Virus record (IMG/VR): IMGVR_UViG_3300045988_149331
Span: 32,001 to 96,000 of that record
DNA: 64,000 nt
Reading direction: 5' to 3' (one strand)
DNA from: a virus
Numbering within the stretch: position 1 is the first letter of the stretch; every line of letters begins with the position of its first letter. The translations under genes and the position numbers were made by a program. Below the pieces are notes generated by a model. The model had not been told where the DNA came from and made no database searches. It saw only the letters and a program-made list of their open reading frames with translations. Shown here one piece after another: positions 1 through 20,317 of this stretch.

Positions 1-1062
1 CGACTTGCCCTTCTTCATCTTAGCACCGTTCTTGTCGCACTGCTCGAAGCCTTCGTCGTCCTCCTCGGTCTCCTCTTCGGATTCCTCCTTCTTGCCGGCC
101 TTGGCATTCTTCATGTTGGCGGCGTTATGACGCGGCTCGTCGTGGGTTTCGTCTTCCTCACCCATCTGGCCGTCGGCGTCATCACCCTTTTTCACCTCTT
201 CGTCACCTTCAGCCTTGGCGCCTTTCGGGGTAATTCCCAGAGCGTCATAAGCCTTCTCGATGTCCTCGGAAGTGATGGATTTTCGTTTGTTCATAACCGA
301 TATGTTTTTGATTAAAGTGTATACACCTTGTGCGTTCGGTATTGTAATATTTGGAATGTCCTTGAAGATACATTCCATGACGGAAGATTTCGAGAAGGTT
401 TGTTTCTTTGGCTGGCCGTCAACCGATTCAGGCATCAGCGCTGCGCCGGACTCAGTGGTCAGAGCCTTCTTCTCGGTTTTTCCACTGCGCTCTTCAGCGT
501 TATCGTCCTCTTCCTCCGCATCAACGTCGATACCGTCAGCGTCGATCTGACCCTTGATGATATTTACGAACGTATGGGGGTTTTTGGGCATATGGGTTAC
601 AGCGACGCCTGTGATAACGGCCTTGACGATCTTATTGTAGAGCGGCGAGTTCTTGTCGTTAGAACCACGCTTTACGACCTTACCCTCGATGGAATACCCC
701 AGACGGCGCGTCTTGCTGTCGTGTTCGAGGGTTTTGGCCAGTTCATATACCTCGCACGCCATAGGCGACGAAGCGTACAGGTCGCTCTCGATCCAAAGAC
801 CTTCAGGACGCAGTTCCACCTTTGAAGGTTCGCCAATGATAGCCGACGGGGAGTTCTTGGCCTGGTGGTGCCAGTTTACCATGCCTGACTTCTTCAGCGG
901 GTCAACGTCGAAGCCTGTCGGGTCCAGGTATTCGCCATCAGCATCCTTATCCATAGTGGAGGCAATACCGCCAATACGCATAACAGGTTCGCCTGCTTCG
1001 TCGGTGGCCTTCTCGATGCGTCCGATGGGGCACCAGAAATTGAATTTATCGTCCTTAAACAT
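1..1062 (-). CDS. Prohead protease (HK97/S78-like) fused to an acidic scaffold-like C-terminal region; 3' end runs off the window
   Basis: Absent from the ORF track because there is no stop inside the window. ATG is at 1062..1060 and the frame stays open for 354 codons down to base 1. N-terminus reads MFKDDKFNFWCPIGRIEKATDEAGEPVMRIGGIASTMDKDADGEYLDPTGFD. The WHHQ and LGYSIEGKV blocks resemble the His/Ser blocks of HK97-family prohead proteases. The distal half is D/E/K-rich like a scaffold. Confidence 0.6.
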   Translation of the reverse strand, partial: MFKDDKFNFWCPIGRIEKATDEAGEPVMRIGGIASTMDKDADGEYLDPTGFDVDPLKKSGMVNWHHQAKNSPSAIIGEPSKVELRPEGLWIESDLYASSPMACEVYELAKTLEHDSKTRRLGYSIEGKVVKRGSNDKNSPLYNKIVKAVITGVAVTHMPKNPHTFVNIIKGQIDADGIDVDAEEEDDNAEERSGKTEKKALTTESGAALMPESVDGQPKKQTFSKSSVMECIFKDIPNITIPNAQGVYTLIKNISVMNKRKSITSEDIEKAYDALGITPKGAKAEGDEEVKKGDDADGQMGEEDETHDEPRHNAANMKNAKAGKKEESEEETEEDDEGFEQCDKNGAKMKKGKS

Positions 1063-1261: not shown

Positions 1262-3031
1262 CTATCCGAGTACAAAGATATGCTTGAGATACACCTGTAG
1301 GCCAGGATAACCTTCTAATAATCCAGATGTACATTGGAAATCAAGAACTCCAGCTGCACGACGGCGAACGTTTATTGAGCCATTGGAGCTGGTTGCGCTA
1401 TCAAAGAATCCCGCAATTGTATTCCATGAATTGTGCGCCGAAGGTAAATCGTAATATACGACCACATTTCCAGACGGACTAAATCGCCCATCGCTGTCGG
1501 CCATTTCGAAACAAAGCATTAATGTTACCCCGGGCGATAATTTTGCTAATTCGGTAGATCCATAGGGGATGATTGCACCGTTGCTTTGGTTGAGTTCTAC
1601 ATCCGATCCTGGTAGCTTTATTACCGTTTGTGCTCCTCCGCCGCCTAATTCTGTCCATTGAGCAGTAGTTCCGTTCGTCGAGCCGGAGAAAGTACGGCTA
1701 CCATCAGCTGTTTGGAGCAGATAGGTGTATAAAACAGGCCCCGATGAACTCCTAAAACAATGACCGTATAAAGGCGCAGTAACACCTGAAGGTCCCCCTA
1801 CGATTGTGCCTGCTGTACATATGATCACTCCTTGACCTACAGCCAAATTTCTTATGCTAATATTCGTAGGGTTATTGAAATTAGATACCTGTATTTTTGT
1901 TGCTGGCAGGTCTTTGATAGCAAGACTTACTCCCGTCATATCCACAGCCCCAGTTGTTGCGTTAACGGCGATGCGTTGTATTGCAGCATTAAACGTTGAG
2001 CCAGTACCTACCGAAGGGCAAATAAAGACATATTGATCGGTTTCAGCGCTGTCTTGAGATCGGATAAAGTCTAACTGACCGTAGTCTGCCTGATCGGGGG
2101 TACTGAATATCATACGGAAGATATCGGCAACCTTAACGAATTTCAAATCGCCAGTAGGCACACCCCCGCCTTCGCCGTATGTGAATTCGTATACTGAGGC
2201 TTCGATTCCTGTGGGAGTGCCAAGAATACTCCAGTTCGTAGCGTAAATGTTCGTAGACTGGTAAGTATACAGATACGAACGTTTATAAGTATTGATTGAA
2301 ATAGAGGTACCAACGTATTTAATCGACGAAGCAGAAATTTTTACAGCATAGCCTACCAAAGCCGAGCCAGGTCCGTTAGCGGCGTCATCGGCGCTCGTAA
2401 ATGTGAACATCTCGCCAACGGCAATATCACCCATCACGCAATTGCTGAAAGTGTTACTCTTAAAATCAGTAACCGTCAGATATTTCATGGCGCTGCCGCC
2501 GCTGCCGCCGCCTCCGGCCCACTCCATCATTACACCCATACCACCCCAGTCGTCATAAGCGGTCGAGTGCAATTTCTTGATGATTGCTTCGTCTGTCAGA
2601 GTTTGGAGTGTAAGCCACGCCATGGGGATACTGGACGAAGGAATGACGCGAATATAACTGTCGGTAAGATGGAAAATTTGGAGACCGTTCGTGCCTCCGG
2701 TTTCGGCGTTCGTTCCTTGGAGTATATTGACAATAAACGCCATTTCAGGTTTTCCTGGTGCGCCTGACGCGAGATTCCCTGTCACGATACGCAGACGTCC
2801 GATATTCGCCGCTGCGGTCAGTAGTCTGAGCATGTCCCAAAGTTTTACCTTGCTATCGCCGTATGTAAAATTGTTGGAAATGGGCAAATTGCCAAGCGAC
2901 GGATCTTGCGAAAACGTCAACGCCGCAATCTGGCTTGTGTTGATCTTGTTAGACTCAGAAACCTGAATTTCTTCTTGTCCGCTGGCTGAAGACTTCAGCG
3001 TCAACGCAGACATGTCAATAAAAGTAGGCAT
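1262..3031 (-). CDS. Hypothetical virion-module protein with three Gly-rich linkers
   Basis: 589-aa ORF sitting between the cargo genes and the prohead protease. Gly linkers are GGGGSGGS, GEGGGVPTG and LGGGGAQ, each followed by a beta-rich segment. I recognise no enzyme motif. Confidence 0.6.
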   Translation of the reverse strand: MPTFIDMSALTLKSSASGQEEIQVSESNKINTSQIAALTFSQDPSLGNLPISNNFTYGDSKVKLWDMLRLLTAAANIGRLRIVTGNLASGAPGKPEMAFIVNILQGTNAETGGTNGLQIFHLTDSYIRVIPSSSIPMAWLTLQTLTDEAIIKKLHSTAYDDWGGMGVMMEWAGGGGSGGSAMKYLTVTDFKSNTFSNCVMGDIAVGEMFTFTSADDAANGPGSALVGYAVKISASSIKYVGTSISINTYKRSYLYTYQSTNIYATNWSILGTPTGIEASVYEFTYGEGGGVPTGDLKFVKVADIFRMIFSTPDQADYGQLDFIRSQDSAETDQYVFICPSVGTGSTFNAAIQRIAVNATTGAVDMTGVSLAIKDLPATKIQVSNFNNPTNISIRNLAVGQGVIICTAGTIVGGPSGVTAPLYGHCFRSSSGPVLYTYLLQTADGSRTFSGSTNGTTAQWTELGGGGAQTVIKLPGSDVELNQSNGAIIPYGSTELAKLSPGVTLMLCFEMADSDGRFSPSGNVVVYYDLPSAHNSWNTIAGFFDSATSSNGSINVRRRAAGVLDFQCTSGLLEGYPGLQVYLKHIFVLG

Positions 3032-3990: not shown

Positions 3991-6372
3991 TTATTTCCTT
4001 GTAATTATTTTCGAACGGTTGAACACGATCATGAACGAGTTTCCGCAGTGATTACCGTTAGGCTGGATCATGGCGTCATAACCCTTCAACGCAGCGTATA
4101 CACCCAATACCTCGTCACACGATCGTGCGGCTTGATATATTCCGGCATAAATGTCCTTGTCGGGATTTCCGACGCTGTTGGTAGCCAATTTTCGGGCTGC
4201 ATCACGCTTTTCCTGATAGATACGGAAGGCGTCAGCGCGTTCCTTTTGAAGACGGTTTACTTCGTCGTCGAGATTATTGACAGCCTCCTTGACAGCTTCT
4301 TCGATACGGCCGTAGTGCTCGCGCATGATCCATTCCTTAAACTGGCGGACGGGATAGTTGTACGGACGTGAAAAGCCGCTTTTGCGCTTAATAGCGTTAT
4401 TCTCGTACCGGTAACGCGAGAACAGAAAACGCTCCGTAGTATTCGGCATTTTGATGACCAAATCACCACTCCCGTTGTTCTTCTCGGTAATAGTACCGCC
4501 ATTGGCCGTTACCCAGCCGCGGAGGTGGTTGTTCACGAAATCGTCAAATTTCATATAGTCCGGGTTGCCGTCATCGTCGATAGCACCCCAGTCGATGATC
4601 TGATCAATCTGCAACGGGATGTCCTTGTAGGCAAAGTCGTCCCAATGCATGTTGGCCTTAACCTGCTTTTCGGTAGTGTTGGTTAGGGTGTTCAGTTCTT
4701 GAGACAACTTGTTGTAGTTATCCTCCGCGTCTTGCTGCTCCTTAAGAGCCTTCTTGGCTGCAGGAGAAGTGGTGAGCGGCAGTTTCTGAATTTCATCACG
4801 AGCGTCTTGAACGGTAATCACCTTGGCGGAATCATCCAGTACAGCTTCGATGATAGCCCCGTTGTAACCAGCGTAACCACGGGCGTTTTTGTAAGACGAT
4901 GTGTGCTTGTACCCCGACGGCGTTTTATTGGCGTTATCAGAATCGTTGACGTGGAAATAGATTCCTTCGCCGTAAATACCTTGCGTACCGTAGAAACACG
5001 CGTCGTTGTACTTGAAGTCGTCAGCGTAATATTCCGTATCACTGCCGCGCACATTAACGCCACGGAACAGATGGTATTTTGACTGCGCCACCTTGGCCCA
5101 GAAGGTATTATCATCTACAACGTCAGGACGCACATCGAAACCGCGGGCCTTGCAAATATTGGACAGCATCTCCCATCCTACCTGATTATTGGTATTGGTT
5201 AACTTGTCCGCAGCACTGATTCCGCTGACGCTACTGTAGATTTCCGCCAACTCATCATCGGTGAACTCGCGGTACATTTCCGCATCCGGTTTCAGAGTTC
5301 GCGGCGCAACCTTTCTTTGCTGGCGTTGCAACTCTATCTCGTACTGTCCTCTGATGCGATCAAGGTCTTTGAAACGAGCCTCGATGATAGCACGCATCTT
5401 CGGTTTAGAGGCCAATTTACCAGCGTCGAAAAACGCCAACACCTCGTCTTTGCGTGCCTTTAAGGCGTCAATTTGGTTGATAAAATCCCGCGGCGTAAGG
5501 TTAGCTACAATCTGTGGGTTGTAGCGAACCATGCCGTCCCAGTCGATTTGACTGTTAAAAGGCTTATTGGCGCCTTGTGCTCGGTAGTCGAACGTACCGC
5601 CGTTATCCACGCGATAGACTTTGCCGGCGGCGTCAACCAAGCAGTTGTCATTCTGGTAGATATCCCAGTTGGCCAAAAAGGCATCAACGGCGAAGCCTTT
5701 GGCCATAGCGTCATAGTCCTTGGCCTGCGGCTCACTCATACCGCGCATGTACGGCGAAATAAGCGTCAAATCGGTTCCGTCGTCGTACATTTCATATTCT
5801 GGCGTGTCGAGCCCCAAGAGGTCATAAACCTGCGCGGCGTAGTATTCTGCAGCAACGTGACCGCGATTAGTGTTTTTAGAACTCTTGACGACAAACTCAC
5901 GCCCCTTAGAGTCCTTCATGAGTTTGGCTCCAGTACTACCGCCGAGGTCCTGCACATAGGTGAGGTCTGAAGGATCGGCAGGGAACATCTCGTTCAACTG
6001 CTTCTCTTCCTGAGCCAGCATGGCTTTAGAACGAAAGGCTCCTTTTCCAATAGGTTGGCCGTTGGCGGTCTTGTAAACTCGCCAGTCGTACGTCGTCTTG
6101 GCGTTAGGAGTCAGCGTCCAAATGTACACCACGCCATTCACGACCTTGGTCTGGCCAGGCATGATGGCTTTGGCTATCTCGGGGTCTTGATCGATACCGT
6201 GGATGTGGTCATACACCGATTTGGCGACGTACAGGTTGTACGAATAGTCGTCAGCAAAGTCTTCAGACCGCGCCTTATACGCTTCACACGCCTTCTCCAG
6301 TACGGCATCAGATATCTCGCCCTCAGCGTTACGGAGGGCGAAGACATCGAGTGCTTTTCTGAGTTCATCCAT
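3991..6372 (-). CDS. Multidomain 'polyvalent' protein: PI3K/PI4K-type-II-like kinase domain, PARP-like ADP-ribosyltransferase-like domain, coiled coil and a C-terminal GYDAM module
   Basis: Kinase-like: GREFVVKSSK and DAFLANWDIYQNDNCLVDAAGKVYRVDNGGTFDY, compared with the PI4K-II blocks NTDRGNDNWLI and IDNGLAFP. ART-like: YHLFRGV, YGEGIYFHV and YNGAIIEAVLDD, compared with PARP LFHGS, GxGIYFA and YNEYIVYD. C-terminus: LKGYDAMIQPNG..MIVFNRSKI. Confidence 0.55.
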   Translation of the reverse strand: MDELRKALDVFALRNAEGEISDAVLEKACEAYKARSEDFADDYSYNLYVAKSVYDHIHGIDQDPEIAKAIMPGQTKVVNGVVYIWTLTPNAKTTYDWRVYKTANGQPIGKGAFRSKAMLAQEEKQLNEMFPADPSDLTYVQDLGGSTGAKLMKDSKGREFVVKSSKNTNRGHVAAEYYAAQVYDLLGLDTPEYEMYDDGTDLTLISPYMRGMSEPQAKDYDAMAKGFAVDAFLANWDIYQNDNCLVDAAGKVYRVDNGGTFDYRAQGANKPFNSQIDWDGMVRYNPQIVANLTPRDFINQIDALKARKDEVLAFFDAGKLASKPKMRAIIEARFKDLDRIRGQYEIELQRQQRKVAPRTLKPDAEMYREFTDDELAEIYSSVSGISAADKLTNTNNQVGWEMLSNICKARGFDVRPDVVDDNTFWAKVAQSKYHLFRGVNVRGSDTEYYADDFKYNDACFYGTQGIYGEGIYFHVNDSDNANKTPSGYKHTSSYKNARGYAGYNGAIIEAVLDDSAKVITVQDARDEIQKLPLTTSPAAKKALKEQQDAEDNYNKLSQELNTLTNTTEKQVKANMHWDDFAYKDIPLQIDQIIDWGAIDDDGNPDYMKFDDFVNNHLRGWVTANGGTITEKNNGSGDLVIKMPNTTERFLFSRYRYENNAIKRKSGFSRPYNYPVRQFKEWIMREHYGRIEEAVKEAVNNLDDEVNRLQKERADAFRIYQEKRDAARKLATNSVGNPDKDIYAGIYQAARSCDEVLGVYAALKGYDAMIQPNGNHCGNSFMIVFNRSKIITRK

Positions 6373-6378
6373 GGCTGG

Positions 6379-8136
6379 CTATTCGAACAACAGGGTTTCT
6401 GCCTTTTCGATCGACATTTCATCAACGTGGAGTGCGCCAAGATCAATCTCTTTGGCCTTCCACGTATCAGGGATCATGTCTTCAGCACCGAGTGTTTTGG
6501 CGCGACGCTTGATCCAGCGGCGAGCGCGTTCGGGGTTCTTAGCGTTGCCGGCGAGGCGGATGGCATTCTTCAGATCAGACTTGTTGCGGATCGGGAACGA
6601 GCCGTCGGGGAGGGCCTCCTTTTTCTTGGCGAGTTTATCGCGCTGCTCTTCGGTGAAATCGGCCTTTTCGAGCGATTCTGCGCCGTTAAGTAACTGCTCG
6701 GCCTTACTGATCGCGTCGGAGGTTTCGATCGGTTGAATGGCCTCATACGCGAGACTCTTCGTCAGCGCACGCACGGCACTCTTCTCCCACTCCTTTTGCT
6801 TCGCACCGATGAGGTTCGTCCACTCACCGCCCTGTTGGGCCATACGGTTAGAACGTTCCGTAGAGCGTTTTTCTGACAGAATGGTACCGAAAGTACGGGT
6901 GGTAAACTTGGCGGGATCGATCTTATCCTTATTCTTGACGATCAAATCGAACAGCTCTTGGCGTTCGGCCTTGTCCTCTTCAGGATCGTCAAGGTGAGGT
7001 GCCTGAGGTACGTCCATACTGGCGAATCGGTCTTTTAGTACCTCGATAGTTTCATCAACCGTCAGGTACACCTCCGACGAAAGCGTAGCGCGGCTGATGA
7101 TAGCTTTAGTATCTTCGTTCTTGGCGAGGTTCACCAAGTCCTTGTTGGTCATGATGATGATACGTCCCGTGAATACGAAATTCGACTTGACGTCTTCAGG
7201 GTCGCCGACGACGCGTTTACCACTGGCGGCAGTAGCTTTCTTCATGATAGAAGCCAGGTCGGCGCGGGTGATAACGGAATCGGTATCGTCGAACAGCAGA
7301 ATCTTGCCGTTGTGGGCCTTGAGTACGCCCAACAGCTGCTTCTTGGAGTTGATATCACCAAGTTCAACGTAGTCATAATCGCCGTCGCCAGGGGCGTCGG
7401 TCTCAGCGTCAAACGGACGCTTGTTGAGCAGTTCGGCGATCTTCTTGAAACCGTACGACTTACCAACGCCTGCGCCTCCGGCCGAGATCATGAAGCGTTG
7501 CTCCTTGTTGTCCAAGAACTCCAGATACTGGCGGTTCAGGTCGTACATTACCTCAACGGGCGGCTGGTAGTCGGGGTCCTTACGCTTCATCTTGTAGACG
7601 AAACGGTCGTAGGCGATACGGTCTTGGCGGTTCTGGAGTTTGTTGAATTTCTTCTGAACACGCGGGTCCTCGGGGTTGAGGAACCAGTCTTCCATAATCT
7701 CGCCATCGACGTTTTCACCTTCGCCGTCGTTAATATCAACCTTGTCTTGGGCGTTAGTAGGCGCAACGTCGTCCTGCTTGGAGGTCATCTTCAGCAGCGC
7801 GTCGAGTGTACCGGAGGTATCAACAGCCGAAGCGTCGAATTCGTCACGCGTCTTCAACTCCTCATAGGCAATCTTACGCAACTGCGCGTTGCCCTTGGGG
7901 TTGTTTACTACTTTGAGCAGATTGTCTGCGGAGGTACGCTTGGCCCACTCTTCAAGGCTGGCGGAACCGCCAGCAGAACCCGATTTACCTTCGTCGGCGG
8001 CAGGAGCCTTCTTGTTCTTGGCGTTTTTGTCGAGACGCCAGTTGAACTTTCCTGGCTTGTATTCGGTCCAAACCCACGGCTGTGTAGGGTGGTGGTCGCC
8101 GACGTTGTGTTTTGCTTTTTGGATAATGTCTGACAT
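6379..8136 (-). CDS. AAA+/P-loop ATPase with an N-terminal leader shared with the ART protein
   Basis: Walker A is ISAGGAGVGKSYGF, Walker B is KILLFDDTDS, and a sensor-1-like IIIMTNKD follows. The C-terminal module is DGSFPIRNKSDLKNAIRLAGNAKNPERARRWIKRRAKTLG. Confidence 0.65.
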   Translation of the reverse strand: MSDIIQKAKHNVGDHHPTQPWVWTEYKPGKFNWRLDKNAKNKKAPAADEGKSGSAGGSASLEEWAKRTSADNLLKVVNNPKGNAQLRKIAYEELKTRDEFDASAVDTSGTLDALLKMTSKQDDVAPTNAQDKVDINDGEGENVDGEIMEDWFLNPEDPRVQKKFNKLQNRQDRIAYDRFVYKMKRKDPDYQPPVEVMYDLNRQYLEFLDNKEQRFMISAGGAGVGKSYGFKKIAELLNKRPFDAETDAPGDGDYDYVELGDINSKKQLLGVLKAHNGKILLFDDTDSVITRADLASIMKKATAASGKRVVGDPEDVKSNFVFTGRIIIMTNKDLVNLAKNEDTKAIISRATLSSEVYLTVDETIEVLKDRFASMDVPQAPHLDDPEEDKAERQELFDLIVKNKDKIDPAKFTTRTFGTILSEKRSTERSNRMAQQGGEWTNLIGAKQKEWEKSAVRALTKSLAYEAIQPIETSDAISKAEQLLNGAESLEKADFTEEQRDKLAKKKEALPDGSFPIRNKSDLKNAIRLAGNAKNPERARRWIKRRAKTLGAEDMIPDTWKAKEIDLGALHVDEMSIEKAETLLFE

Positions 8137-8171
8137 ACGTTGTGCAGTTTTCCAGATAAATACTTGGAAAT

Positions 8172-8981
8172 CTACACCTCCACCGCGTCAAAGTCAATAT
8201 CAAATTTCTTGTACACAATTCGCAACTCCGGTACGCCGTTAATTGGCTTCTTCTTTTCGTCAATACGAGCGTTCAACGGCCAGCGCTTGAGTATGATGTC
8301 GTGCGCCCGCTGCACGCGCTCCTGGCGTTCGTATACGTCTTGGAGACCGCCGCCCTGGTTGGCTTCCTTGTTCATCTTACTCTGGAGAAGGAACCGCACG
8401 AACCGCGCGTAGACGATTCCCAGGTACATGCATTTCAACGAATAGTCGATGTCGCATTTCAACTCCAACTTTTCGTCAAAGTCCAGTTCCAGCGTCCGTA
8501 GCCCCTTGAAGACGATCAAGTGTGGAATACCGCCGTACTTGAAGCGCGGGCTGACGTCGGTACAACTCCAGTCGAAGGCGCTCTTGCCCATCGTTCCATA
8601 CTCAAAATCGGTTTCCATGACCTCGCGATCAAACTCCTCAAAGAACTCGCTGAGTTCTTCCGGCGTTTTCAACGACAGCCCACACTTGGCTTCACCGTCG
8701 ATCGAGTAGAAGAAGTTGGCGATGTCGTCATCCATCACCACCACCGGGTGGTTCTTGCGGAGGTAGGTGTTCTTGCAGAAATTTACCACGTAGCTGTAGC
8801 CGCGGTTCGAGGCCGGCAGCACAATCAGCCGCTCACGGGCGTGACCCGCTTCGACGTATTTTTCAACGTCCTCCTTTTCGACCACAATATTGTAGTCAAC
8901 GCCGCCCTTTTCCAACAGTTTAGTCGTGACGCACTTGGGGCGGTTCTTGGACACGACGAAGAATTGACAGTTCATACTCAA
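8172..8981 (-). CDS. GT-A-like glycosyltransferase-like protein (DxD type; resembles TET/JBP-associated glycosyltransferases)
   Basis: FFVVSKNRP...LIVLPASNRGYSYVVNF...PVVVMDDDIANF, followed by a late GGGLQDVY block. Same architecture as the paralog at 25887..26702. Its stop overlaps the upstream gene by 4 nt. Confidence 0.4.
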   Translation of the reverse strand: MSMNCQFFVVSKNRPKCVTTKLLEKGGVDYNIVVEKEDVEKYVEAGHARERLIVLPASNRGYSYVVNFCKNTYLRKNHPVVVMDDDIANFFYSIDGEAKCGLSLKTPEELSEFFEEFDREVMETDFEYGTMGKSAFDWSCTDVSPRFKYGGIPHLIVFKGLRTLELDFDEKLELKCDIDYSLKCMYLGIVYARFVRFLLQSKMNKEANQGGGLQDVYERQERVQRAHDIILKRWPLNARIDEKKKPINGVPELRIVYKKFDIDFDAVEV

Positions 8982-9658
8982 AAGGGTAATTCACCTTCGG
9001 ACCATATTTCCTCGGGTGGGTTTTGTTCTATGAAACGTTGATATTTGTCTATCGTAGGCTCCAGCGACGGGTAGAACCTAAAGGCAAGTTCCCACTTGAC
9101 GTCAAACATATCGTCGCACGGGACTTTGCGCTTCATCAACACATTTTCGTTGTTGTAGCACTGAATTGTGACTTGCTGACGGCCACGCGAAGTGTACGAA
9201 TAGGGAAAGTCGCGATAGTACTCAGCCAGCGAAACCGTATCTTGAACAACGTCGTGAATGAACTGATTGAAGGGGTGTCCCAGCCCCAACGGCGCCAATA
9301 CGGTATAACCACGGTTGCGTCGTAGGAAACGACGCAAATGGTCGCGAAGCGTTTGTTCGGCGAAATTAAGCGTGTCAGTTCCGTATTTAGTTCTGAGGTA
9401 CGTATAGACGCTGGAGAGATTAAAGTCCTTGAAATGGTCGCCAAAATCGCTACAAATCGCATCTTCGAACCCAGTGTCGAAGACATCCATCGTAATACCC
9501 ATGAATTCATAGAGCGATCGCTGTTCTACAACGCGGTTTGGGTCGCTATCTACAGTAAGCACCCGAACGTCATATTCGGGTGCTACTAAAACGTGACAAG
9601 CGCTCATCAGGAGATCACCCGCGTGAGGCTCGACACACAGGTACTTTATTTTTCCCAT
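8978..9658 (-). CDS. LmbE/PIG-L-like putative de-N-acetylase
   Basis: N-terminal YLCVEPHAGDLLMSA compares with the PIG-L AHPDDE block. The later LGLGHPFNQFIHD compares with the HPDH block. It is translationally overlapped with both neighbours. Confidence 0.4.
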   Translation of the reverse strand: MGKIKYLCVEPHAGDLLMSACHVLVAPEYDVRVLTVDSDPNRVVEQRSLYEFMGITMDVFDTGFEDAICSDFGDHFKDFNLSSVYTYLRTKYGTDTLNFAEQTLRDHLRRFLRRNRGYTVLAPLGLGHPFNQFIHDVVQDTVSLAEYYRDFPYSYTSRGRQQVTIQCYNNENVLMKRKVPCDDMFDVKWELAFRFYPSLEPTIDKYQRFIEQNPPEEIWSEGELPF

Positions 9659-10605
9659 GGCCGCTTGTAGATTTTCTCAGCGCAGGGGCCGTCTTTCGAC
9701 ACGTCCTCAGCCATCTTCCGGATTTCCGGCGTGATAGGCGGCAGCGTTTGCTTACCCATTTTGTCAGGCAGGAAGCCGACGCGGACGCTTACGTGCGTAC
9801 ACCCCTGACACGGGCGGAAGCGGCGGTCGTTGTTGTACAGCATGACACGGGCGGCGTGAAAGCGCGGGTGGTTCCACAGGTCTTCGATGGGCATGTCGTG
9901 GATGTTGGCGATTGGGTACTCACCGCGGAAGTCATCACAGCACAGACACACCTGGCCATTCCACCTCACGTCCAGTTCGCGGAACGGGAAGGTGCACCGC
10001 TTGTTGTTGAACGAATCGTCAAGCGGGAAGGCCGCGCCGCAGTGGTTGGCCAGGCGACGTGTCATCTTGTTGGTGTCGTCGTGGGCGATAGGCGGCAGCA
10101 AGCAGATACGACGGCCCTGCTTGGGGTAGTAGTACGGAACGCCGGGTTCCAGCGTCACGACGTTGTACTTATCAACATCGATCTTCTCGACGAAATTCCA
10201 GTCGCCGTTGGCCGTGTAGCAGTCCACCAGAATATCGTTCATACCTGCTCCGAACAGCGCGTCGAGGTACGCCTCGGTGTCTTCAGCGTGGTTCATGGCG
10301 TAACCGTTACTGTACATATGAAACACAGCCTTCGGCAAGTGCTTGCGGAACGTGGCGACGATGTCGATGAAGGCAGGATTCAGCGTCGGTTCGCCGTGCA
10401 TAGCGAACACGAACTTACAGTTCCAACCCACCCGCGCTACCTCCGAAGCAATACGCTCGGCCGTTTCGACGGTCATGAAATTCCAGGGCTTGGTCCCCTT
10501 TTCACGCATACCGTGTAAACCGCAGAACGAACAACCGAGGTTACAGCCCTCGGTAGGTTCAATCTGCATGGTAAACGGGGGGTCTTGTACGATTTTGTTT
10601 TTCAT
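9646..10605 (-). CDS. Radical SAM enzyme with a SPASM/twitch-like Cys-rich C-terminal domain
   Basis: CNLGCSFCG is a CX3CX2C motif, followed by a GEPTLNP block. The C-terminus carries CTFPFRELDVRWNGQVCLCCDD and RPCQGC. Confidence 0.75.
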   Translation of the reverse strand: MKNKIVQDPPFTMQIEPTEGCNLGCSFCGLHGMREKGTKPWNFMTVETAERIASEVARVGWNCKFVFAMHGEPTLNPAFIDIVATFRKHLPKAVFHMYSNGYAMNHAEDTEAYLDALFGAGMNDILVDCYTANGDWNFVEKIDVDKYNVVTLEPGVPYYYPKQGRRICLLPPIAHDDTNKMTRRLANHCGAAFPLDDSFNNKRCTFPFRELDVRWNGQVCLCCDDFRGEYPIANIHDMPIEDLWNHPRFHAARVMLYNNDRRFRPCQGCTHVSVRVGFLPDKMGKQTLPPITPEIRKMAEDVSKDGPCAEKIYKRPWEK

Positions 10606-11537
10606 TATTTTGTAACTTTAATGTTGAGTTTCACGTTCTTTAACTTTGGGTCTTTGAACTGACGCTTGACGGGCTTGGTGAAAGCGCGGGTTGCGGGGTC
10701 CCAATCGAAATTATCAGGCTTGTAATTAACCTGACACCGGCAGTAGGGGTGCGTCGGGTTAATCGTAGGGAGCCACTCTGCCGCCTTACGACCGATGTTG
10801 TTACCGTTAGCGATAAGGTCCGCCAAACGGAACAGTTTCGGTTTCGAGGTAGGGTCCTCGGGGTCTTCTAAGTACAACTCCCGGCACTTAGCGCACGCGC
10901 CTGGATAGACGTCGAAATACACTTTGGCGTCAGGCCCGTGTTGCTTGAAAATACTTTCAGCACGGCCCACGTTGTAGGCTTCGTGCAGGAGATAGTACGC
11001 AATACGCAGCCAATCGCGTCCCCAGTCTTGGGTAAGGTTTCCCAGTTCGCTGGCTACATAGCGCGCCCCCTTACGGAGTTGAACGGCTTGAATGGCCTTA
11101 TCTTTGATTTGCTGGCGTATAGCGGCCTGCTGACGGAAATTCGACTTGAGGATGGTGTTGCGTGTCCCGGTGACGATACGGTTGCCAAGCGATGTGATGT
11201 CGGTGTAGGCGCGGTTCTTGAGGTAATTGAGGGCGTTCTCTTCCTGTTCAGTGAGCGGTACAAAGTTTCCTGATTTCAAGAACTGAAGAAACTGTTTGTA
11301 GTTCATCTTCTTGGCGCGGGTATCGCCGATAGCCTCAGCCAAGATTCCAAACAGAAAGGCGTGTTCGATTATACCCTTAGAGTTCTTGTACTTATCGACG
11401 TTGACGCCTGACGCCACCAAGATGTCGATCTCCGACTGGGTCAGAAAATCCAATCCGACGTGCTTAGCAATAAACAGGTACTGCCAGCGCCGGAGAATAC
11501 CGACCATGTCGTCTATTTGGCGGTTATTGAAAATCAT
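10605..11537 (-). CDS. Head morphogenesis protein, Mu F / SPP1 gp7 family
   Basis: The C-terminal NPTHPYCRCQVNY matches the HPNCRC signature of MuF-like proteins. It lies downstream of the portal and is separated from it by nine intervening genes. Confidence 0.65.
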   Translation of the reverse strand: MIFNNRQIDDMVGILRRWQYLFIAKHVGLDFLTQSEIDILVASGVNVDKYKNSKGIIEHAFLFGILAEAIGDTRAKKMNYKQFLQFLKSGNFVPLTEQEENALNYLKNRAYTDITSLGNRIVTGTRNTILKSNFRQQAAIRQQIKDKAIQAVQLRKGARYVASELGNLTQDWGRDWLRIAYYLLHEAYNVGRAESIFKQHGPDAKVYFDVYPGACAKCRELYLEDPEDPTSKPKLFRLADLIANGNNIGRKAAEWLPTINPTHPYCRCQVNYKPDNFDWDPATRAFTKPVKRQFKDPKLKNVKLNIKVTK

Positions 11538-12175
11538 CAGTCTTCAGTGCTCCAAGAGCCGTCGTTTTTTAATTCCCTGGCTTTTGGTCCATCAGATACA
11601 GTCTTCTTGATACCATATTCCCCAGGGCGTTCGTTTTCTTCACTCCGTACCTTGTTCGCAGTTTCCGCCGCTTTTTGATACGAACCACTCTTTACCTTCC
11701 GTAACAAACGAATGTCTTCTATCTTTATGGAATTTGGATATTTGCCCCCTATTTTGTTAACAAGTCCGTCTATTTTCACCTCAAAGCTATCGCCATCGCG
11801 GCTAACTATCTTCCCAACTGAATATGAATGATAACCGGAGCCGTTATTAACATGAACAATTACGACATCGCCATGGCTTAAATCGGAAGGTTCAACCTCG
11901 TGTCCTGAATTAAAATCCTCAACGGTGTACTGGTACAGTTTCTTGTTAGGTAATTTAATTGGCTTGAACTTAGGTTCTTTGTAAGGCATCCCAACGCGCC
12001 CTAATTTCCGATTTTCAGACGTGTCGGCGTATCGCCCGGTCTTCGAACGGGCTTTCTCCAACGCATCGCCGTCGGTTAGGTTTCCTTCAAAAGCACCTAT
12101 GGCTTTACACAAGTGGTCGTGGCGATATTGATTGGCTTCATGAAATGCCCTCGTCACTTCATCTACTACTCCCAT
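11537..12175 (-). CDS. Hypothetical virion-module protein with an NRKLGRVG leader motif and an SH3/Tudor-like segment
   Basis: EKARSKTGRYADTSENRKLGRVGMPY is shared with the ART protein. The segment GDVVIVHVNNGSGYHSYSVGKIVSRDGDSFEVKIDG looks SH3/Tudor-like. Confidence 0.6.
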   Translation of the reverse strand: MGVVDEVTRAFHEANQYRHDHLCKAIGAFEGNLTDGDALEKARSKTGRYADTSENRKLGRVGMPYKEPKFKPIKLPNKKLYQYTVEDFNSGHEVEPSDLSHGDVVIVHVNNGSGYHSYSVGKIVSRDGDSFEVKIDGLVNKIGGKYPNSIKIEDIRLLRKVKSGSYQKAAETANKVRSEENERPGEYGIKKTVSDGPKARELKNDGSWSTED

Positions 12176-12678
12176 AATCTTACTCGTGATTCATGGCCGT
12201 GTTTAACGGCAATTCTACCGTTGTTAAGGTCGATTTCAACGCTCTTATCGGTAAGTGCAACAACTTTTCCAGGCTTATAACAAAACCCATTTTCAGCGTT
12301 CCCCAACTTGACGATAACAGCTCTGTACTTGGTGAGTTCGGAAAAGTCTTTGATCTTGATGGCTTCTTCGTCAAACATCTTTTTCCAAAACCACTCGATA
12401 TCAGGCCAGAGGCGAACCTCTTCGTTAACCCCTAACGACGCTGTAATCGGCGCACCATTGGGGAACAAATTCACCTCACACTTACCATCACTGACGCGTG
12501 ATAGCGTACCGATGTTATACCTCACCTTCCCCTTATCATCCTTCACGCGAACGATGACTCGTACAGGGTAAGGCGGTGTTACCTTCAACGCGCTGTTAGC
12601 AGCGATTGTTGTGCCGATATGCCAAATCTTCTCAGCCTTCGCTGCTGACACGGCCCAAATTATTTTTCTTTGGTCCAT
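12166..12678 (-). CDS. Hypothetical protein with two SH3/Tudor-like repeats
   Basis: VRVIVRVKDDKGKVRYNIGTLSRVSDGKCEVNL and AVIVKLGNAENGFCYKPGKVVALTDKSVEIDL. Confidence 0.55.
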   Translation of the reverse strand: MDQRKIIWAVSAAKAEKIWHIGTTIAANSALKVTPPYPVRVIVRVKDDKGKVRYNIGTLSRVSDGKCEVNLFPNGAPITASLGVNEEVRLWPDIEWFWKKMFDEEAIKIKDFSELTKYRAVIVKLGNAENGFCYKPGKVVALTDKSVEIDLNNGRIAVKHGHESRVRLWE

Positions 12679-12850
12679 CTTCCTTTAATTCTTTTACCGC
12701 CGCAGCCGTAGCGTCGGCGATGTATTTTAGTACATCGCCTAACGCAGCGGCGTTGTTGGCGTTCCATTCGCGGATAAACCGATCTTCGTACTGAGTAACG
12801 GTGGGGAATGGCGACGGCAAAAAGTGGGTATGTTTGGCGTTGTAAGGCAT
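12632..12850 (-). CDS. Small hypothetical protein, start coupled (TAATG) to the ART gene stop
   Basis: 72-aa ORF. Its ATG shares base 12850 with the TAA stop of the ART gene. Confidence 0.45.
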   Translation of the reverse strand: MPYNAKHTHFLPSPFPTVTQYEDRFIREWNANNAAALGDVLKYIADATAAAVKELKEDGPKKNNLGRVSSEG

Positions 12851-14604
12851 TACTCTTGTTTGCTATCTTCCGGCAACCATTCCATTAAGACACGATTTCC
12901 TTCAATCTTATGGACCTTATAATTTTGGTCTCGGCCAATTAAAAATTCCCCCTCCTCTCCTCCGTAAACCCCTACTACTGGAGCAACCGGGCAACCCGCG
13001 GGAGCGATAATATCAAAATACATAGTCCCCTCGTCGTTGCTAATTTCAGGATAACATGTAGTGCTCATGAACGACTTATCGCTGAACACCTCCCCCTCCT
13101 TGAGATTTTTAACGAAATTATCTGCATCGTTTTCAAACGTAAGTTTCCTGTATAAAACGATATTTTGTCCCACTTTATTTTGAGAAATAAACGTATCAAT
13201 TCCGTTTATGAATTTATCCATTTTATCAGACGATACATCGACTTTGTTGCCGTAAAGGTATTTTCTCATTACAGCAAAGTCAAGATCATCATCTTCGTCA
13301 AAATCGTCATCATGGTCTGCGGAATATAAAACAATAGCTTTTACTGCATCCGAATCGCTTTCGTCCATGAAATCCTCATAAGCGTCAACAATCTTATCAA
13401 AGAATTCAGTTGCATCGTCGCTGTTTAATCGTATGAATTTTTCGCCGTTTATGTCCAACCCACTTTTCCGTAAAGCCCATTTGTACGCTCTATCGGCCTT
13501 TTTGAGAACTTTTTCATTCGCCTTGTCAGAGGGTAATCGCTCAATGTTTTTCGCAGTACTGTCGCCTGATAATGAAATATTAAAACGTTCATTATCTGCT
13601 TCAAATTTCTTTTGTTCTTCTGCTTTTTCCCTTTTAACATCCTCGCTTTTTACCCAAAAAGCGATAGCGTCGTCTTTTGTGTCTTCAGGCACGATATTAT
13701 TTCTTTTCAAGACATCAATCGCCTTTTTAGATAATTCTTCGGGGGTTAATTTATACTTTGAATACTGTTCGTCGGTCTTTCGTAATTTACTCAAAAAGAT
13801 GCCAGCTATCGTCTTTGGTGTATCGCTACCTCGTACTTGATCCAGCAAATCTTTTTCGAATTTCTCATCAACGGCATCTTCGTCTTTATTGTCGTCATCC
13901 TTTTCACTACCCTCCCTGGCGTCAGGATCGCCGAACTTGGACGCGGCTCCCTCGACGTCAGCGATCTCCTTCACCGTCGTGGTCTCGAAATTGTCAACAT
14001 CGGCGTAGGGGTATTTGTCCACGCGGTAGCCTTCGCTGGTCTTGGTGACTACCAGATCGAAGCCGTCTTCGTCGCCGCCGACCTGCTTGATGAACGCGTG
14101 AGAAGCGTCTTCGACTCCAGCGTACTGCTCCAGGTCCTGGTCGTCCATCTGACGGAAGCCCATGGACTCAAACGAGGCCGTCGCCTTGGCGTCACCGTCA
14201 GCCAGGCCGTTACGCAACGAGGCGTCGCCCTTCTTGTTCTTGGCGCGAACGTTCACGCCGCGGCGTTCGAGTTCTGCGGTGGCCACCTTGCGCATTTCAG
14301 CGTCAGCCGACGGATCGTTAGCCACTTTCACCAACGCCTCCTCCGAAGCCGAGCGGGCATGATTCTGGAGGCTGACGTTGCCTCCGGGAACGCCACCTTC
14401 ACCCCCCTCAGCCGCGGGGTCTTTCTCCTTGGCTGCGTGACCGTACTCCTGACCCACACGTTGCAAGCGGCGGTTTTGAGCGTTGTCGGTGTATACACCG
14501 TGACGCGCTTTTTCGATTTCTACCTCTTCAGTTTCGGGGATGTTGACGAACCCCTTGAGGATTTGCTGTCGTTTTGCCTCACCGTAGTTGATAATCTCTT
14601 TCAT
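12850..14604 (-). CDS. ADP-ribosyltransferase (R-S-E class) with a long N-terminal leader/linker
   Basis: C-terminal domain reads VLYRK (R), SFMSTTCY (STS-like) and GGEEGEFLIGR (ExE). The N-terminus has GVYTDNAQNRRLQRVGQEYG and a HEAT-like segment shared with the AAA+ protein. Confidence 0.7.
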   Translation of the reverse strand: MKEIINYGEAKRQQILKGFVNIPETEEVEIEKARHGVYTDNAQNRRLQRVGQEYGHAAKEKDPAAEGGEGGVPGGNVSLQNHARSASEEALVKVANDPSADAEMRKVATAELERRGVNVRAKNKKGDASLRNGLADGDAKATASFESMGFRQMDDQDLEQYAGVEDASHAFIKQVGGDEDGFDLVVTKTSEGYRVDKYPYADVDNFETTTVKEIADVEGAASKFGDPDAREGSEKDDDNKDEDAVDEKFEKDLLDQVRGSDTPKTIAGIFLSKLRKTDEQYSKYKLTPEELSKKAIDVLKRNNIVPEDTKDDAIAFWVKSEDVKREKAEEQKKFEADNERFNISLSGDSTAKNIERLPSDKANEKVLKKADRAYKWALRKSGLDINGEKFIRLNSDDATEFFDKIVDAYEDFMDESDSDAVKAIVLYSADHDDDFDEDDDLDFAVMRKYLYGNKVDVSSDKMDKFINGIDTFISQNKVGQNIVLYRKLTFENDADNFVKNLKEGEVFSDKSFMSTTCYPEISNDEGTMYFDIIAPAGCPVAPVVGVYGGEEGEFLIGRDQNYKVHKIEGNRVLMEWLPEDSKQE

Positions 14605-17942: not shown

Positions 17943-18200
17943 TTAGCGTGAATATAGGTAGGCGGTACGGTCGTCCCAAACGAAATTGAAACTCATATCC
18001 CCTTGAGGATATTCCGTGATGGTAATGCCGTTGGCGGTTGTTTCACGTTCGATACGCCAGCCCGGCTCTCCCTGGCCTGTGCCGATAGGGGCATATCCGC
18101 GATACACGGTCCCCTCAGTGGAAGCGTCGATGATAGGCTTCGGCATGGCCTCCGAAAGCAACTGCACGATGGGTGCAGTATTCTTCTCGTTACTCGTCAT
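17943..18200 (-). CDS. Small hypothetical protein downstream of the portal
   Basis: 85-aa ORF overlapping the portal stop by 11 nt. Confidence 0.5.
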   Translation of the reverse strand: MTSNEKNTAPIVQLLSEAMPKPIIDASTEGTVYRGYAPIGTGQGEPGWRIERETTANGITITEYPQGDMSFNFVWDDRTAYLYSR

Positions 18201-19956
18201 GATCTATTGCTTTTTGTAAGTATTCGTCAAATGCGGCCACGAGCGGGTTTGCCTCACGGGCCTTCATAGTCTCTTCGTCGTCGCCTTGGGCGTAAAGGTC
18301 AAACGGGTTGCCGCCCTGGGCGTCGGCGTCTTCTTCGCCTTCACCACCAGCCACAGGCTCATCAGCCGGGCCGCCTGCTGCCTCCATACCCATACCAGCG
18401 GCCTCTTCGAATGGGTTTCCACCGCCCATTCCCATACCGCCCATCGCCTGCTGCTGTTGCTGCTTGGCGCTGAGGGCTTGTTGAATAACGGAGTTTTCGA
18501 TAGTATCACCACCCTTTTCTTCGCCGATGGCGGGGAGGTCCCACTTTTCGCGAATTTCATCGACGGTCTGGAAGGCTTGAAGGCGTTTGATGTCCATATC
18601 CAACTCCTCGGAAATAGTCATTCCGTTGAGGCCCATGAACACGAACTCAAAGTCAGGGTTAATCTGGTCAACGATGAACTTGTTAATCTTACGCTGGATG
18701 AACTTCAACAGCGGATACAGACCCTTGTCTTTCGACTGCTCCATACGTTGTTTTTGGCCATCGCCAAACGTCAGGCCGCTGTTGTTAGAACGTGATATGT
18801 CCCAACCGATTTCCGTCGGGTCGATACAGTACACAGCGCAAGCGATCTTAATCAGGTATTCCATCCAAGACGTGTACTCCATATCACGGTTGTTCTTCTG
18901 GAGGTCTACCCAGTCAATATCACCTTCGACGACAGGCGTCTTCCACGACTGCATAACGCCTGAAATCATCGCCTGCCACTGCTGTTTGAACTGCTGAAGC
19001 GAAGCCTCGTTGACGTTGCCCTTGATACGCAACAGACCCTTCGGGGCTGACCCCTGTGAGAAGAAACGGCGGTTGTACTCATCACCCCAAAGCATCGACG
19101 TGACGACGTTGATCAACTCTTCCAACTCGGAGTTCCCGTAGCCGTTAGCGTAGATAGACGTTGACGGGTTGCGGATTCCAAAGCACAACTCCCATGGATA
19201 GAACTGTGCCACCTTGGCTGTTTGGTACACCTGGACGTAGGCCGGGTAGTAACCGTCGATTTTTTGCCCCCAGTTTTGGCGGTCATCCATCATTACGCCG
19301 CGGAAATACGGGTTGTCGTATTCACCATCAAAGTACGAATCTGCCAACCGGAACGTAGCAGCGTCTACAGCCTGGAAACGTACCAATTTACCGCGGCGAT
19401 TGCGGATACATTCAAACGTCAGCTGGTCGAACGTCAACGAGTCGTCAACGATCTTACGTATGAACTCGTCAAATTCGTCACCATCCCACGCAGCAGTATC
19501 GCCACAGTTTAGGATGAAGTCCGTGATGGACGAAGCGATCTTGCAGTCTTGGGAGTCCATTTTCTGCTCCATACCGTGACGCGGCTTGCGTCGAATAACG
19601 AAGCCCGTCGAATAGCGGTCGGCCTGCGGTTCAGCAAAGTCGGCCACCTGATTCTTACGGGTCTTGATGATGGAGTTGATAATGGGGGTGCGGCTCATCC
19701 GGCGCAGCGTCTCGTACGAGAGTGAGAACGGCTTATCCTTGTAACCCAAAAACGAGTTGAACTCCAACGGGTCGATGAGATATGCCTTGGGGGCCACGTT
19801 GGCGGGCTTGCTTTGCTGGTTAAATATTTCGGCCGCTTTGAGTATGTCGGACGGGTTATCACCACGCAGCGCCTTCTCCACCAACAGCGATTTGCGGATG
19901 GTCAAGGCTTGCATGGCGCGTTCTACCGATTCCAATCTTTCTTTTACACCGGACAT
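18190..19956 (-). CDS. Portal protein
   Basis: 588 aa, in the head-morphogenesis block upstream of the MuF gene, with a Gly/Met-rich then acidic C-terminal tail. The family call rests on size, context and general resemblance. Confidence 0.6.
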   Translation of the reverse strand: MSGVKERLESVERAMQALTIRKSLLVEKALRGDNPSDILKAAEIFNQQSKPANVAPKAYLIDPLEFNSFLGYKDKPFSLSYETLRRMSRTPIINSIIKTRKNQVADFAEPQADRYSTGFVIRRKPRHGMEQKMDSQDCKIASSITDFILNCGDTAAWDGDEFDEFIRKIVDDSLTFDQLTFECIRNRRGKLVRFQAVDAATFRLADSYFDGEYDNPYFRGVMMDDRQNWGQKIDGYYPAYVQVYQTAKVAQFYPWELCFGIRNPSTSIYANGYGNSELEELINVVTSMLWGDEYNRRFFSQGSAPKGLLRIKGNVNEASLQQFKQQWQAMISGVMQSWKTPVVEGDIDWVDLQKNNRDMEYTSWMEYLIKIACAVYCIDPTEIGWDISRSNNSGLTFGDGQKQRMEQSKDKGLYPLLKFIQRKINKFIVDQINPDFEFVFMGLNGMTISEELDMDIKRLQAFQTVDEIREKWDLPAIGEEKGGDTIENSVIQQALSAKQQQQQAMGGMGMGGGNPFEEAAGMGMEAAGGPADEPVAGGEGEEDADAQGGNPFDLYAQGDDEETMKAREANPLVAAFDEYLQKAIDHDE

Positions 19957-19993: not shown

Positions 19994-20317
19994 TCAACCC
20001 AACATTTTCAAAATGTCGTTGCAGGCCGTTTTCCTGATTATCAACGCTTGATGAACGATATCTCCCCACACCGCCAACTGATGACCGCGCCATGAGTAGT
20101 AGTCGGTTTGGTCATCGTACGAACCTTGCCACTCGCCTTCGCTGCGTATAGTAGCCACCAAACGGCGAAATGCTCGCTGTTCGTCGGTAGTGAGGGGTGA
20201 TATAAAAGTGCCGACGACTACTAATCGTGCGGCACTCGTTGTTAGATCATCGGCTAACGTTTGAAAGTTAATGCCCATGAACTCACCTGTCTCTAATGGG
20301 GTATGAAAAGTTATCAT
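19994..20317 (-). CDS. Hypothetical protein
   Basis: 107-aa ORF with a 4-nt overlap with the upstream gene. Confidence 0.55.
   Translation of the reverse strand: MITFHTPLETGEFMGINFQTLADDLTTSAARLVVVGTFISPLTTDEQRAFRRLVATIRSEGEWQGSYDDQTDYYSWRGHQLAVWGDIVHQALIIRKTACNDILKMLG

Follow-up and report, generated by a model that had tools for sequence, protein, structure and literature searches.

Encapsulins bring unrelated enzymes into an HK97-fold shell by means of a short, conserved cargo-loading peptide carried on a flexible linker, and prohead proteases and scaffolding proteins have C-terminal tails that target them to the capsid. Among phages, a short capsid-targeting sequence (CTS) at the N-terminus of the internal proteins IPII and IPIII of T4 suffices to send foreign proteins into the core (PMC9958956), and the T4 protein Alt is an ADP-ribosyltransferase (ART) packaged in the head (PMC5512222). 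In the giant phages phiKZ, SPN3US and 201phi2-1, many head-internal proteins, among them paralogue families, carry N-terminal propeptides that the prohead protease removes at a short consensus motif; a single propeptide can hold several copies of the motif, and a C-terminal peptide is lost from the protease as well (PMC10052503). A further case is that of the MuF-fused polymorphic toxins or "polyvalent proteins", effectors linked to a head anchor, for which packaging and injection are predicted (Iyer et al., 2017, PMC5512222). Here we describe short peptide modules shared by otherwise unrelated proteins of a virus from IMG/VR (record IMGVR_UViG_3300045988_149331, positions 32,001 to 96,000; this whole stretch of 64,000 nucleotides is called the window below). 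They are carried by an ART protein of 584 residues, by a 212-residue protein (p212) and by a 585-residue P-loop NTPase, whose positions are collected in Table 1.

The original prediction, made from the sequence alone, had held that the ART and the 585-aa protein share one N-terminal peptide and the ART and p212 another. The coordinates and translations given for both peptides matched exactly on re-check. Residues 63-115 of the ART (nt 14260-14418) align without gaps to residues 45-97 of the 585-aa protein (nt 7846-8004) with 23 identities in 53 positions, and this segment reached a Smith-Waterman score of 119, against 23.5 ± 4.6 for shuffled controls (p ~1e-12). At full length, the two proteins scored 132, while shuffling gave 56 ± 9 (Gumbel p ~1e-5). 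The ART and p212 scored 68 against 41 ± 6.5 (p ~0.003) at full length, with p ~1e-6 for the N-terminal segments only, and their common motif is a 26-aa peptide, phi-EKA(R/K)xGxYxDxxxNR(K/R)LxRVGxxYG, hereafter M1. These were the top two of the 136 pairs formed by 17 neighbouring proteins (z 8.7 and 4.7). BLASTP within the window widened the first match to ART 30-115 against 5-97 (E 9e-10), so that both proteins also have an I-(E/Q)-K-A-(R/K)-H start in common. Both similarities were retained in orthologues from about 22 related IMG/VR contigs. The codons at the common residues were identical in only 7 of 23 cases for the helical unit shared with the 585-aa protein (M2) and in 3 of 9 for M1, at a nucleotide identity of 51-57%, which points to selection on the peptide and not to a recent duplication of the DNA.

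Hidden Markov models (HMMs) of the modules were built by iteration over the window and the fetched loci. As judged from these sequences, the shared peptides belong to a set of four or more short modules, which are interchangeable and joined by disordered linkers, either acidic or Gly/Lys-rich. M1 is the NRKLGRVG motif of ~26 aa (a designed mutant of its core would read AAAAAAAA), M2 is a three-helix unit of ~40 aa with the consensus VSLEEWAKEASDDALLKVANDPKADAELRKIAYEELKRRG, M3 is the Trp-rich N-terminal peptide of the P-loop protein, and M4 is a basic helical module (DGSFPI...RRWIKRRAK) near the C-terminus of the same protein. In the window, M1 is found in the ART and p212, M2 in the ART and the P-loop protein, and M3 and M4 in the P-loop protein only. 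Elsewhere the modules are shuffled into M1-M2, M3-M2-M4, M4-M1-M2 (in NUDIX proteins), M4-M1-M1, M1-M3 and M2-M2...M1, and M3 also occurs on other proteins in four loci (L030, L033, L040, L055). The view of these peptides as modular units on unrelated enzymes was thus borne out: they are genuine, mobile, selectively conserved and attached to unrelated enzymatic domains. The term "N-terminal leader" suits the many N-terminal cassettes, since 32 of 43 phage-type carriers have their first M1 inside the N-terminal 80 aa (its Tyr at aa 42 in the median), and fails for the M1 copies that are internal, C-terminal or duplicated.

An AlphaFold2 (AF2) model based on a 17-sequence cassette alignment of the ART leader predicted a helix at aa 7-20 (L0), M1 at low confidence, a disordered linker and a confident M2. 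The pattern N-I-x-K-x-F of L0 is conserved in this alignment, with F19 invariant, and a Gly/Glu-rich linker (aa 56-76) precedes M2. M2 had been described as a HEAT-like helix pair. A helical hairpin is indeed predicted, but the unit comprises three helices (79-85, 88-96 and 102-114; pLDDT 87-89) and matches no HEAT or LRV profile; against Pfam, the ART and P-loop leaders gave no match even at E <= 10. The model of the whole P-loop protein was poor (pLDDT 52), M2 (helices 61-67, 70-77 and 84-95; pLDDT ~75) and M4 forming confident helical islands and M3 being disordered. A low-confidence M1 between disordered linkers is what would be expected of a docking peptide, and to this extent the models support such a role. 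Word-indexed homologue searches returned only 4 close relatives for the ART leader, none for the M1 consensus and only full-length orthologues for the P-loop protein. Likewise, Pfam, PHROGs and NCBIfam gave nothing useful for the leaders, p212, p793, p589 and the MuF-like protein (the last three are introduced below). In two loci (L029 and L044), M1 is followed by arrays of ~24-aa repeats, to which we assigned, from the repeat sequence, the Pfam HEAT and LRV matches of two carriers.

The same tag is found on different cargo. In the gene at the ART position of 22 related IMG/VR contigs, aa 1-230 are kept at 78-96% identity and the C-termini differ, the ART C-terminus being present only in the window and in contig L002. 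By its family, the window protein is a genuine R-S-E ADP-ribosyltransferase: Pfam ADPrib_exo_Tox matches aa 450-569 (2.2e-9; 37.4 bits against a cutoff of 23.4), and the translation holds the R (LYRKL), S-T-T (FMSTT) and E-x-E (EEGEF) motifs. In the other genes at this position (L003-L024, about 10690-12070), 1-4 tandem repeats of ~95 aa are followed by one of a few alternative C-termini; the locus thus presents copy-number and domain polymorphism at a single site.

The same cargo is also found with different tags. The 585-aa protein had been called an AAA+ ATPase, and two motifs, GGAGVGKS (Walker A, aa 220-227) and ILLFDD (Walker B), are visible in it and invariant in the family alignment. 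As it has no match in Pfam, NCBIfam or the PDB sequences, we call it a P-loop NTPase only; its sole family match is phrog_1250, it is homologous to DAC19_82 of Bacteroides phage DAC19, and one source labels an orthologue "ClpB protein". The family member of the window bears M3-M2...M4; DAC19_82 has L0-M1 instead, and the member in locus L061 combines M2-M2 with an M1 at its C-terminus. These different tags on one family are, in our opinion, what speaks most strongly for a purpose that is equivalent among the modules and does not depend on the cargo.

An HMM search for further fusion partners placed M1 in 1,245 protein clusters (E <= 1e-3). The partner domains were NUDIX, Zeta_toxin, ART, DUF5661, DUF6496 and HEAT/LRV arrays, and M1 was also found with the P-loop ATPase and with a prohead protease. 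Phage-type proteins of 112-689 aa, split into many clusters defined at 50% identity, are headed by a cassette made of L0 (N-I-x-K-x-F), an acidic spacer, phi-EKA-M1, a Lys/Glu/Gly linker and M2. Two close relatives apart, these cassette proteins are 31-47% identical overall, and 19 positions of M1 are invariant across them. NUDIX, Zeta_toxin and ART domains are types proposed or known as phage-delivered effectors (PMC5512222), and by analogy such partners would support a delivery function. M1 is almost lacking in the genomes of cellular prokaryotes: the exact M1 DNA pattern had 52 matches in IMG/VR versus 2 in 185,579 species genomes, both in metagenome-assembled genomes; by our own estimate, far less than 1 match was expected by chance. 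Megablast of the region against cultured phages gave no match, and the only cultured phages with M1 belonged to the Bacteroides DAC/SJC group, with 3-5 places per genome.

The genomic context links the carriers to the head. All genes of the region lie on the minus strand, in the transcription order terminase (26722-29442), portal, four small genes, ART, p170, p212, a 310-aa MuF-like protein, a radical SAM (rSAM) protein, p226, a glycosyltransferase, the P-loop protein, p793, p174, p589 and the head maturation protease, which the capsid gene follows in relatives. The ART, p212 and the P-loop protein are therefore all encoded inside the head-morphogenesis block delimited by portal and protease. 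Positions 1-1062 of the window are near-identical to 11967-13511 of the related locus L075 (phrog_1028, 2.7e-32), where the major head protein (phrog_752, 5e-85) is encoded next; relatives have an SU10-like capsid protein of the HK97 class. The stop of p212 overlaps the start of the 310-aa gene. The 310-aa protein had no match in Pfam, NCBIfam or PHROG; by tblastn, it matched genes for a "minor capsid protein" of SP-10-like Bacillus phages and of the Bacteroides phages DAC/SJC. These homologues, the same length and the portal-proximal position favour a putative MuF/SPP1 gp7-like protein. Of the 13 loci that hold both, 12 have the nearest M1 no more than ~2.8 kb from the MuF-like gene, and about 20 divergent loci, whose portals are as little as 35% identical, have their M1 carriers in a block of portal, MuF, protease and capsid genes. 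As far as sequence comparison can tell, the module carriers are accessory proteins of the head block in virulent phages that form a large clade and have genomes of ~100 kb; the modules are also present in the cultured Bacteroides phages DAC/SJC.

Modules are also borne by proteins that must enter the procapsid. The prohead protease of locus L050 itself bears M1, and M4 shares 56% identity with the C-terminal end of gp30, a capsid maturation protease that Gordonia phage ChisanaKitsune encodes directly upstream of its capsid gene. These two sequence matches support a role of the modules inside the head. In Gordonia and Microbacterium phages, capsid maturation proteases end in M4-like tails, 53-60% identical over ~70 aa, and Bacteroides phage BS162P1 has a stand-alone protein of 103 aa that resembles M4 to the same degree. 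The matches comprise window positions 6451-6702 (minus strand), L074 4001-4213 and L073 8896-9204, and this conservation across host phyla is unusually high.

A second feature common to the head-block proteins is the motif phi-(E/Q)-K-(A/G/S), with which M3 opens (as phi-(E/Q)-K-A-(K/R)-H) in the same way as M1. In the form [ILVM][EQ]K[AGS], it occurs 13 times in the window, always in head-block proteins and mostly near their termini, and 0 times in the 35 other proteins (~6,800 versus 11,000 residues compared; binomial p ~4e-6, our own estimate). In the alignment of the P-loop family, xKA islands are conserved points within otherwise variable linkers, and the sites in the portal and p793 are still present in orthologues with identities as low as 34-49%. 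Divergent relatives retain, at aa ~30-35 of their capsid proteins, the pattern phi-x-K-A-(L/M)-x-x-G, which we take to be comparable to the Lys-Ser maturation site of HK97. This distribution suggests phi-(E/Q)-K-(A/G/S) as a candidate protease site at which a cut after Lys would remove L0.

From the modules, their mobility, their conservation at the peptide level, their partners and their context, we infer capsid targeting, portal docking and ejection. Our leading, although tentative, interpretation, which we hold plausible and somewhat short of probable, is that the shared modules target enzyme cargo to the capsid. They would act as address tags that recruit the ART, the P-loop NTPase, NUDIX proteins and Zeta-type kinases into the assembling procapsid, by docking onto a conserved interior component (portal, MuF-like protein, scaffold or inner surface of the capsid) or onto each other. 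The prohead protease would then trim the cargo between Lys and (A/G/S) of the phi-(E/Q)-K-(A/G/S) site; in N-terminal cassettes, L0 would be removed and M1 left at the new N-terminus. Finally, the cargo would be expelled into the host with the DNA, as is T4 Alt.

Such a system would be similar to that of T4, where the prohead core takes up non-essential enzymes and internal proteins, which are then trimmed by the prohead protease and enter the host together with the DNA. However, the CTS of T4 is ~10 aa long and strictly N-terminal, whereas the L0-M1-linker-M2 unit described here covers ~55-115 aa and can be internal or repeated; gp21 of T4 cuts after Glu, and the candidate site here is phi-x-K-A, cut after Lys. 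Also, the T4 system is experimentally established and that of the window is predicted from sequence. The giant-phage system differs by its protease family and its cleavage motif, and its propeptides, unlike the present modules, are not short invariant motifs on unrelated enzymes of distant phages. With MuF-fused toxins, the module carriers have in common ART and Zeta-toxin-kinase effector domains, among others, encoded next to portal and terminase, with variable C-termini on a constant N-terminus. Here, in contrast, the MuF-like protein is encoded by a separate 310-aa gene, the effectors are separate polypeptides (a family search found no MuF domain within the ART, p212 or the P-loop protein), and the constant part is the M1/M2 cassette and not MuF. 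The position of M4 is exactly that of the C-terminal tail in actinophage maturation proteases, as would suit the encapsulin principle. To our knowledge, the modules have no sequence similarity to encapsulin targeting peptides, and M1, in contrast to these, is also found outside any capsid context.

Several observations weigh against the capsid-targeting interpretation. No carrier is known from virions, and we found no proteomics in the literature for the DAC/SJC phages. A fold search with the leader model against the PDB gave no match at E < 1 and so named no docking partner. The assignment of the 310-aa neighbour to MuF is weak, the alignment of its family with SPP1 gp7 by hhalign being not significant (probability 3%) and confined to a C-R-C motif (262-277 versus 261-276). 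In DAC19, the three M1 carriers lie ~80 kb from the MuF-like gene, beside large genes that look tail-fibre-like by eye. M1 is placed internally, C-terminally or in duplicate in some phage proteins. Concerning the candidate processing site, independent carriers held phi-[EQ]-K-[AGS] 30 times against 10.3 expected from shuffles, but a eukaryotic control set was also ~2.4-fold above shuffle (14 versus 5.9). The shuffles therefore underestimate the background of the motif, and their enrichment was set aside as stand-alone evidence of cleavage because it is not specific enough.

A complication comes from eukaryotes. The top-scoring matches of the M1 profile are eukaryotic proteins in which 5-14 copies of the core motif stand in tandem (median spacing, 41 aa), separated by Ser-rich spacers and lying N-terminal to Ser/Thr kinase domains of the tyrosine kinase-like (TKL) type; the phi-EKA prefix is absent from them. 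The carriers are molluscs, Hydractinia (a cnidarian), Lineus (a nemertean), Acanthaster (an echinoderm) and Carpediemonas (a metamonad). The core Y-x-D-N-x-x-N-R-x-L-G-R-V-G of these proteins (P0125-P0149 and others) equals that of window positions 14440-14493 and 11981-12031. These arrays occur where no capsid exists and, by sequence, argue against a strictly capsid-specific function of M1. Together with the lack of any matching Pfam model, they suggest that M1 is a general interaction peptide adopted by phages and not an invention specific to the capsid. A full-text literature search with M1 motif strings returned only irrelevant dairy-peptide papers, and M1 terms were absent from the text of the polyvalent-protein paper (PMC5512222) as far as it is covered by a term check. 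The tandem M1 repeats of TKL kinases appear to be undescribed.

A possible, although unlikely, alternative takes M1, and perhaps M2 as well, for a short linear motif of general interaction that binds a ubiquitous cellular ligand or protein, or self-associates, and acts in the host after delivery or expression rather than during capsid assembly; phage effectors would target or cluster on a conserved partner, and TKL kinases would use multivalent arrays. The identity of the M1 core over 14 residues between a phage locus and a snail kinase, the repeated copies with their Ser-rich spacers in five eukaryotic groups, the variable placement of M1 in phage proteins and its 19 invariant positions, which fit a highly conserved partner, all agree with this alternative. 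It leaves unexplained the consistent location of the carriers between portal, MuF, protease and capsid, the presence of M1 on a prohead protease, and the phi-EKA prefix and L0 helix, which are phage-only and absent in the eukaryotic copies; also, a candidate ligand was not found. A resemblance of NRKLGRVG to the DnaK model peptide NRLLLTG was considered and rejected by reasoning only, M1 being judged too poorly hydrophobic. We regard as quite unlikely the joint proposal that M1 is an ancient docking or self-association peptide in two kingdoms, used by phages, along with the L0 helix and a protease site, as a portable cargo address that loads arbitrary enzymes into capsids, and as multivalent arrays for TKL-kinase complexes by animals and protists, with a shared peptide-receptor principle or a universal ligand beneath both uses.

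It strikes us as improbable that the basic M1 (N-R-K-L-G-R-V-G) and M4 (R/K-rich helices) would simply tether proteins to packaged DNA with no dedicated capsid receptor. Both modules are indeed Arg/Lys-rich and followed by Lys-rich linkers, their carriers are encoded in the head block, and the hypermodification proposed below for the phage DNA, to which a 5-hydroxymethyldeoxyuridine (5-hmdU) DNA kinase points, could provide a specific ligand. Nevertheless, the linkers are acidic as often as basic, family and fold searches found no similarity to known DNA-binding motifs, and in the known tailed phages proteins must enter the procapsid before the DNA is packaged. Lastly, it is highly improbable that the shared stretches are functionless remnants of ancestry or recombination junctions promoting domain swaps, as the frequently swapped C-termini at the ART position with their variable number of ~95-aa repeats and the shuffled module order might suggest, since the differing codons and the 51-57% nucleotide identity leave no DNA homology for recombination, 19 residues of M1 stay invariant while its flanks diverge, and the breakpoint of the ART orthologues lies at aa ~230 and not at the modules.

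Table 1. Positions of the module carriers, modules and head-block landmarks in the window, with the candidate processing sites.
Feature	Position	Strand	Remarks
ART protein, 584 aa	12850..14604	-	N-terminal cassette, conserved middle (to aa ~230), C-terminal ADP-ribosyltransferase domain
L0, ART leader helix, aa 7-20 (...RQQILKGF)	14545..14586	-	amphipathic; predicted helix, pLDDT ~60
M1 in ART, aa 30-55, IEKARHGVYTDNAQNRRLQRVGQEYG	14440..14517	-	phi-E-K-A prefix included; HMM 3.5e-16
M2 in ART, aa 77-116	14257..14376	-	HMM 1.4e-20; HEAT/LRV-like three-helix unit (predicted)
ART catalytic domain, aa 450-569	12898..13257	-	Pfam PF03496 ADPrib_exo_Tox
p212, 212 aa	11537..12175	-	leader, M1, small C-terminal beta domain common with p170
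M1 in p212, aa 39-65, LEKARSKTGRYADTSENRKLGRVGMPY	11981..12061	-	HMM 1.5e-13; aligns to ART M1
P-loop NTPase, 585 aa	6379..8136	-	M3, linker, M2, P-loop domain, M4, C-terminal IEKAE tail
M3, aa 1-42, MSDIIQKAKHNVGDHHPTQPWVWTEYKPGKFNWRL	8011..8136	-	HMM 1.8e-28; predicted disordered
M2 in P-loop protein, aa 59-97	7846..7962	-	HMM 6.5e-21
M4, aa 479-562, ...EALPDGSFPIRNKSDLKNAIRLAGNAKNPERARRWIKRRAKTLG...	6451..6702	-	HMM 9e-49; basic, helical, pLDDT ~80
M1 peptide, eukaryotic-repeat form (synthetic, outside the window), YVDNAQNRKLGRVG			
p793, head-block protein	3991..6372	-	LEKAC at aa 25, conserved in orthologues at 44-49% identity
310-aa minor head protein, putative MuF/SPP1 gp7-like	10605..11537	-	M1 carrier adjoins as conserved neighbour
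Portal	18190..19956	-	upstream block boundary; phrog_12 1e-46; Pfam Phage_portal 1.7e-20
Head maturation protease and scaffold-like protein, first 354 aa (runs off window edge)	1..1062	-	downstream block boundary
[ILVM][EQ]K[AGS] sites, first group			protease 2; p793 aa 25; P-loop protein aa 5, 489, 576 (of 585)
[ILVM][EQ]K[AGS] sites, second group			p212 aa 39; ART aa 30; portal aa 26, 580; p542 1; glycosyltransferase 1

Some neighbours of the carriers have features of their own. The products of p212 and p170 resemble each other (z 4.6 in the comparison of 17 neighbouring proteins) by a small beta-rich domain (VVIVHVNNGSGYHSYSVGKIVSRDGDSFEVKID versus AVIVKLGNAENGFCYKPGKVVALTDKSVEIDLN; window 11537-12678, minus strand), of which p170, from its sequence, seems to hold two copies. 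p793 had no match in family (Pfam, PHROGs, NCBIfam) or PDB sequence searches and is a candidate co-cargo protein; its Trp-rich stretch VYIWTLTPNAKTTYDWRVYK (aa ~83-103) resembles M3 by eye, the M3 HMM staying below threshold on it. Directly upstream of the prohead protease, p589 (1262-3031, minus strand) had no family match and is hypervariable, with only parts of it found in relatives (27-81% identity). It may be another variable cargo protein or one that interacts with the host.

The window also encodes, on the minus strand, a 5-hmdU DNA kinase (20314-21324; Pfam HMUDK_hel, 4e-51), two glycosyltransferases of TET-associated/T4-like type (8172-8981 and 25887-26702) and an rSAM-SPASM protein (9646-10605). 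This phage thus probably hypermodifies thymidine, and part of the gene kit involved sits inside the head gene block. The rSAM-SPASM protein was considered as a modifier of M3 or M1 and set aside, as the 5-hmdU kinase and the TAGT-like glycosyltransferases make DNA hypermodification the likelier task. The large terminase has 906 aa (26722-29442, minus strand); in two relatives (L057 and L028), aa ~129 joins aa ~481 directly, and the window terminase therefore has an insertion of ~350 aa, possibly an intein or an inserted domain. The DNA polymerase gene (58289-63572, minus strand) is split into 61869-63572 and 58289-61159, with a homing-endonuclease gene (61129-61881) between. The second polymerase part holds an HNH-like stretch, and a paralogous endonuclease (31% identity, E 3e-27) is found at 55911-56678 (minus strand).

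If capsid targeting by the modules is true, the cassette would make it possible to predict from sequence which proteins are injected into their hosts by uncultivated gut phages; the candidates would be the ART, NUDIX proteins, Zeta-type kinases, P-loop NTPases and many proteins with no known family. It would also offer a ready-made tag for loading foreign proteins into the capsids of Bacteroidota phages, and the predicted cleavage motif makes N-terminomics of virions directly interpretable. Finally, M1, for which Pfam has no model, links more than 1,200 protein clusters and connects phages to kinases of molluscs, cnidarians and protists.

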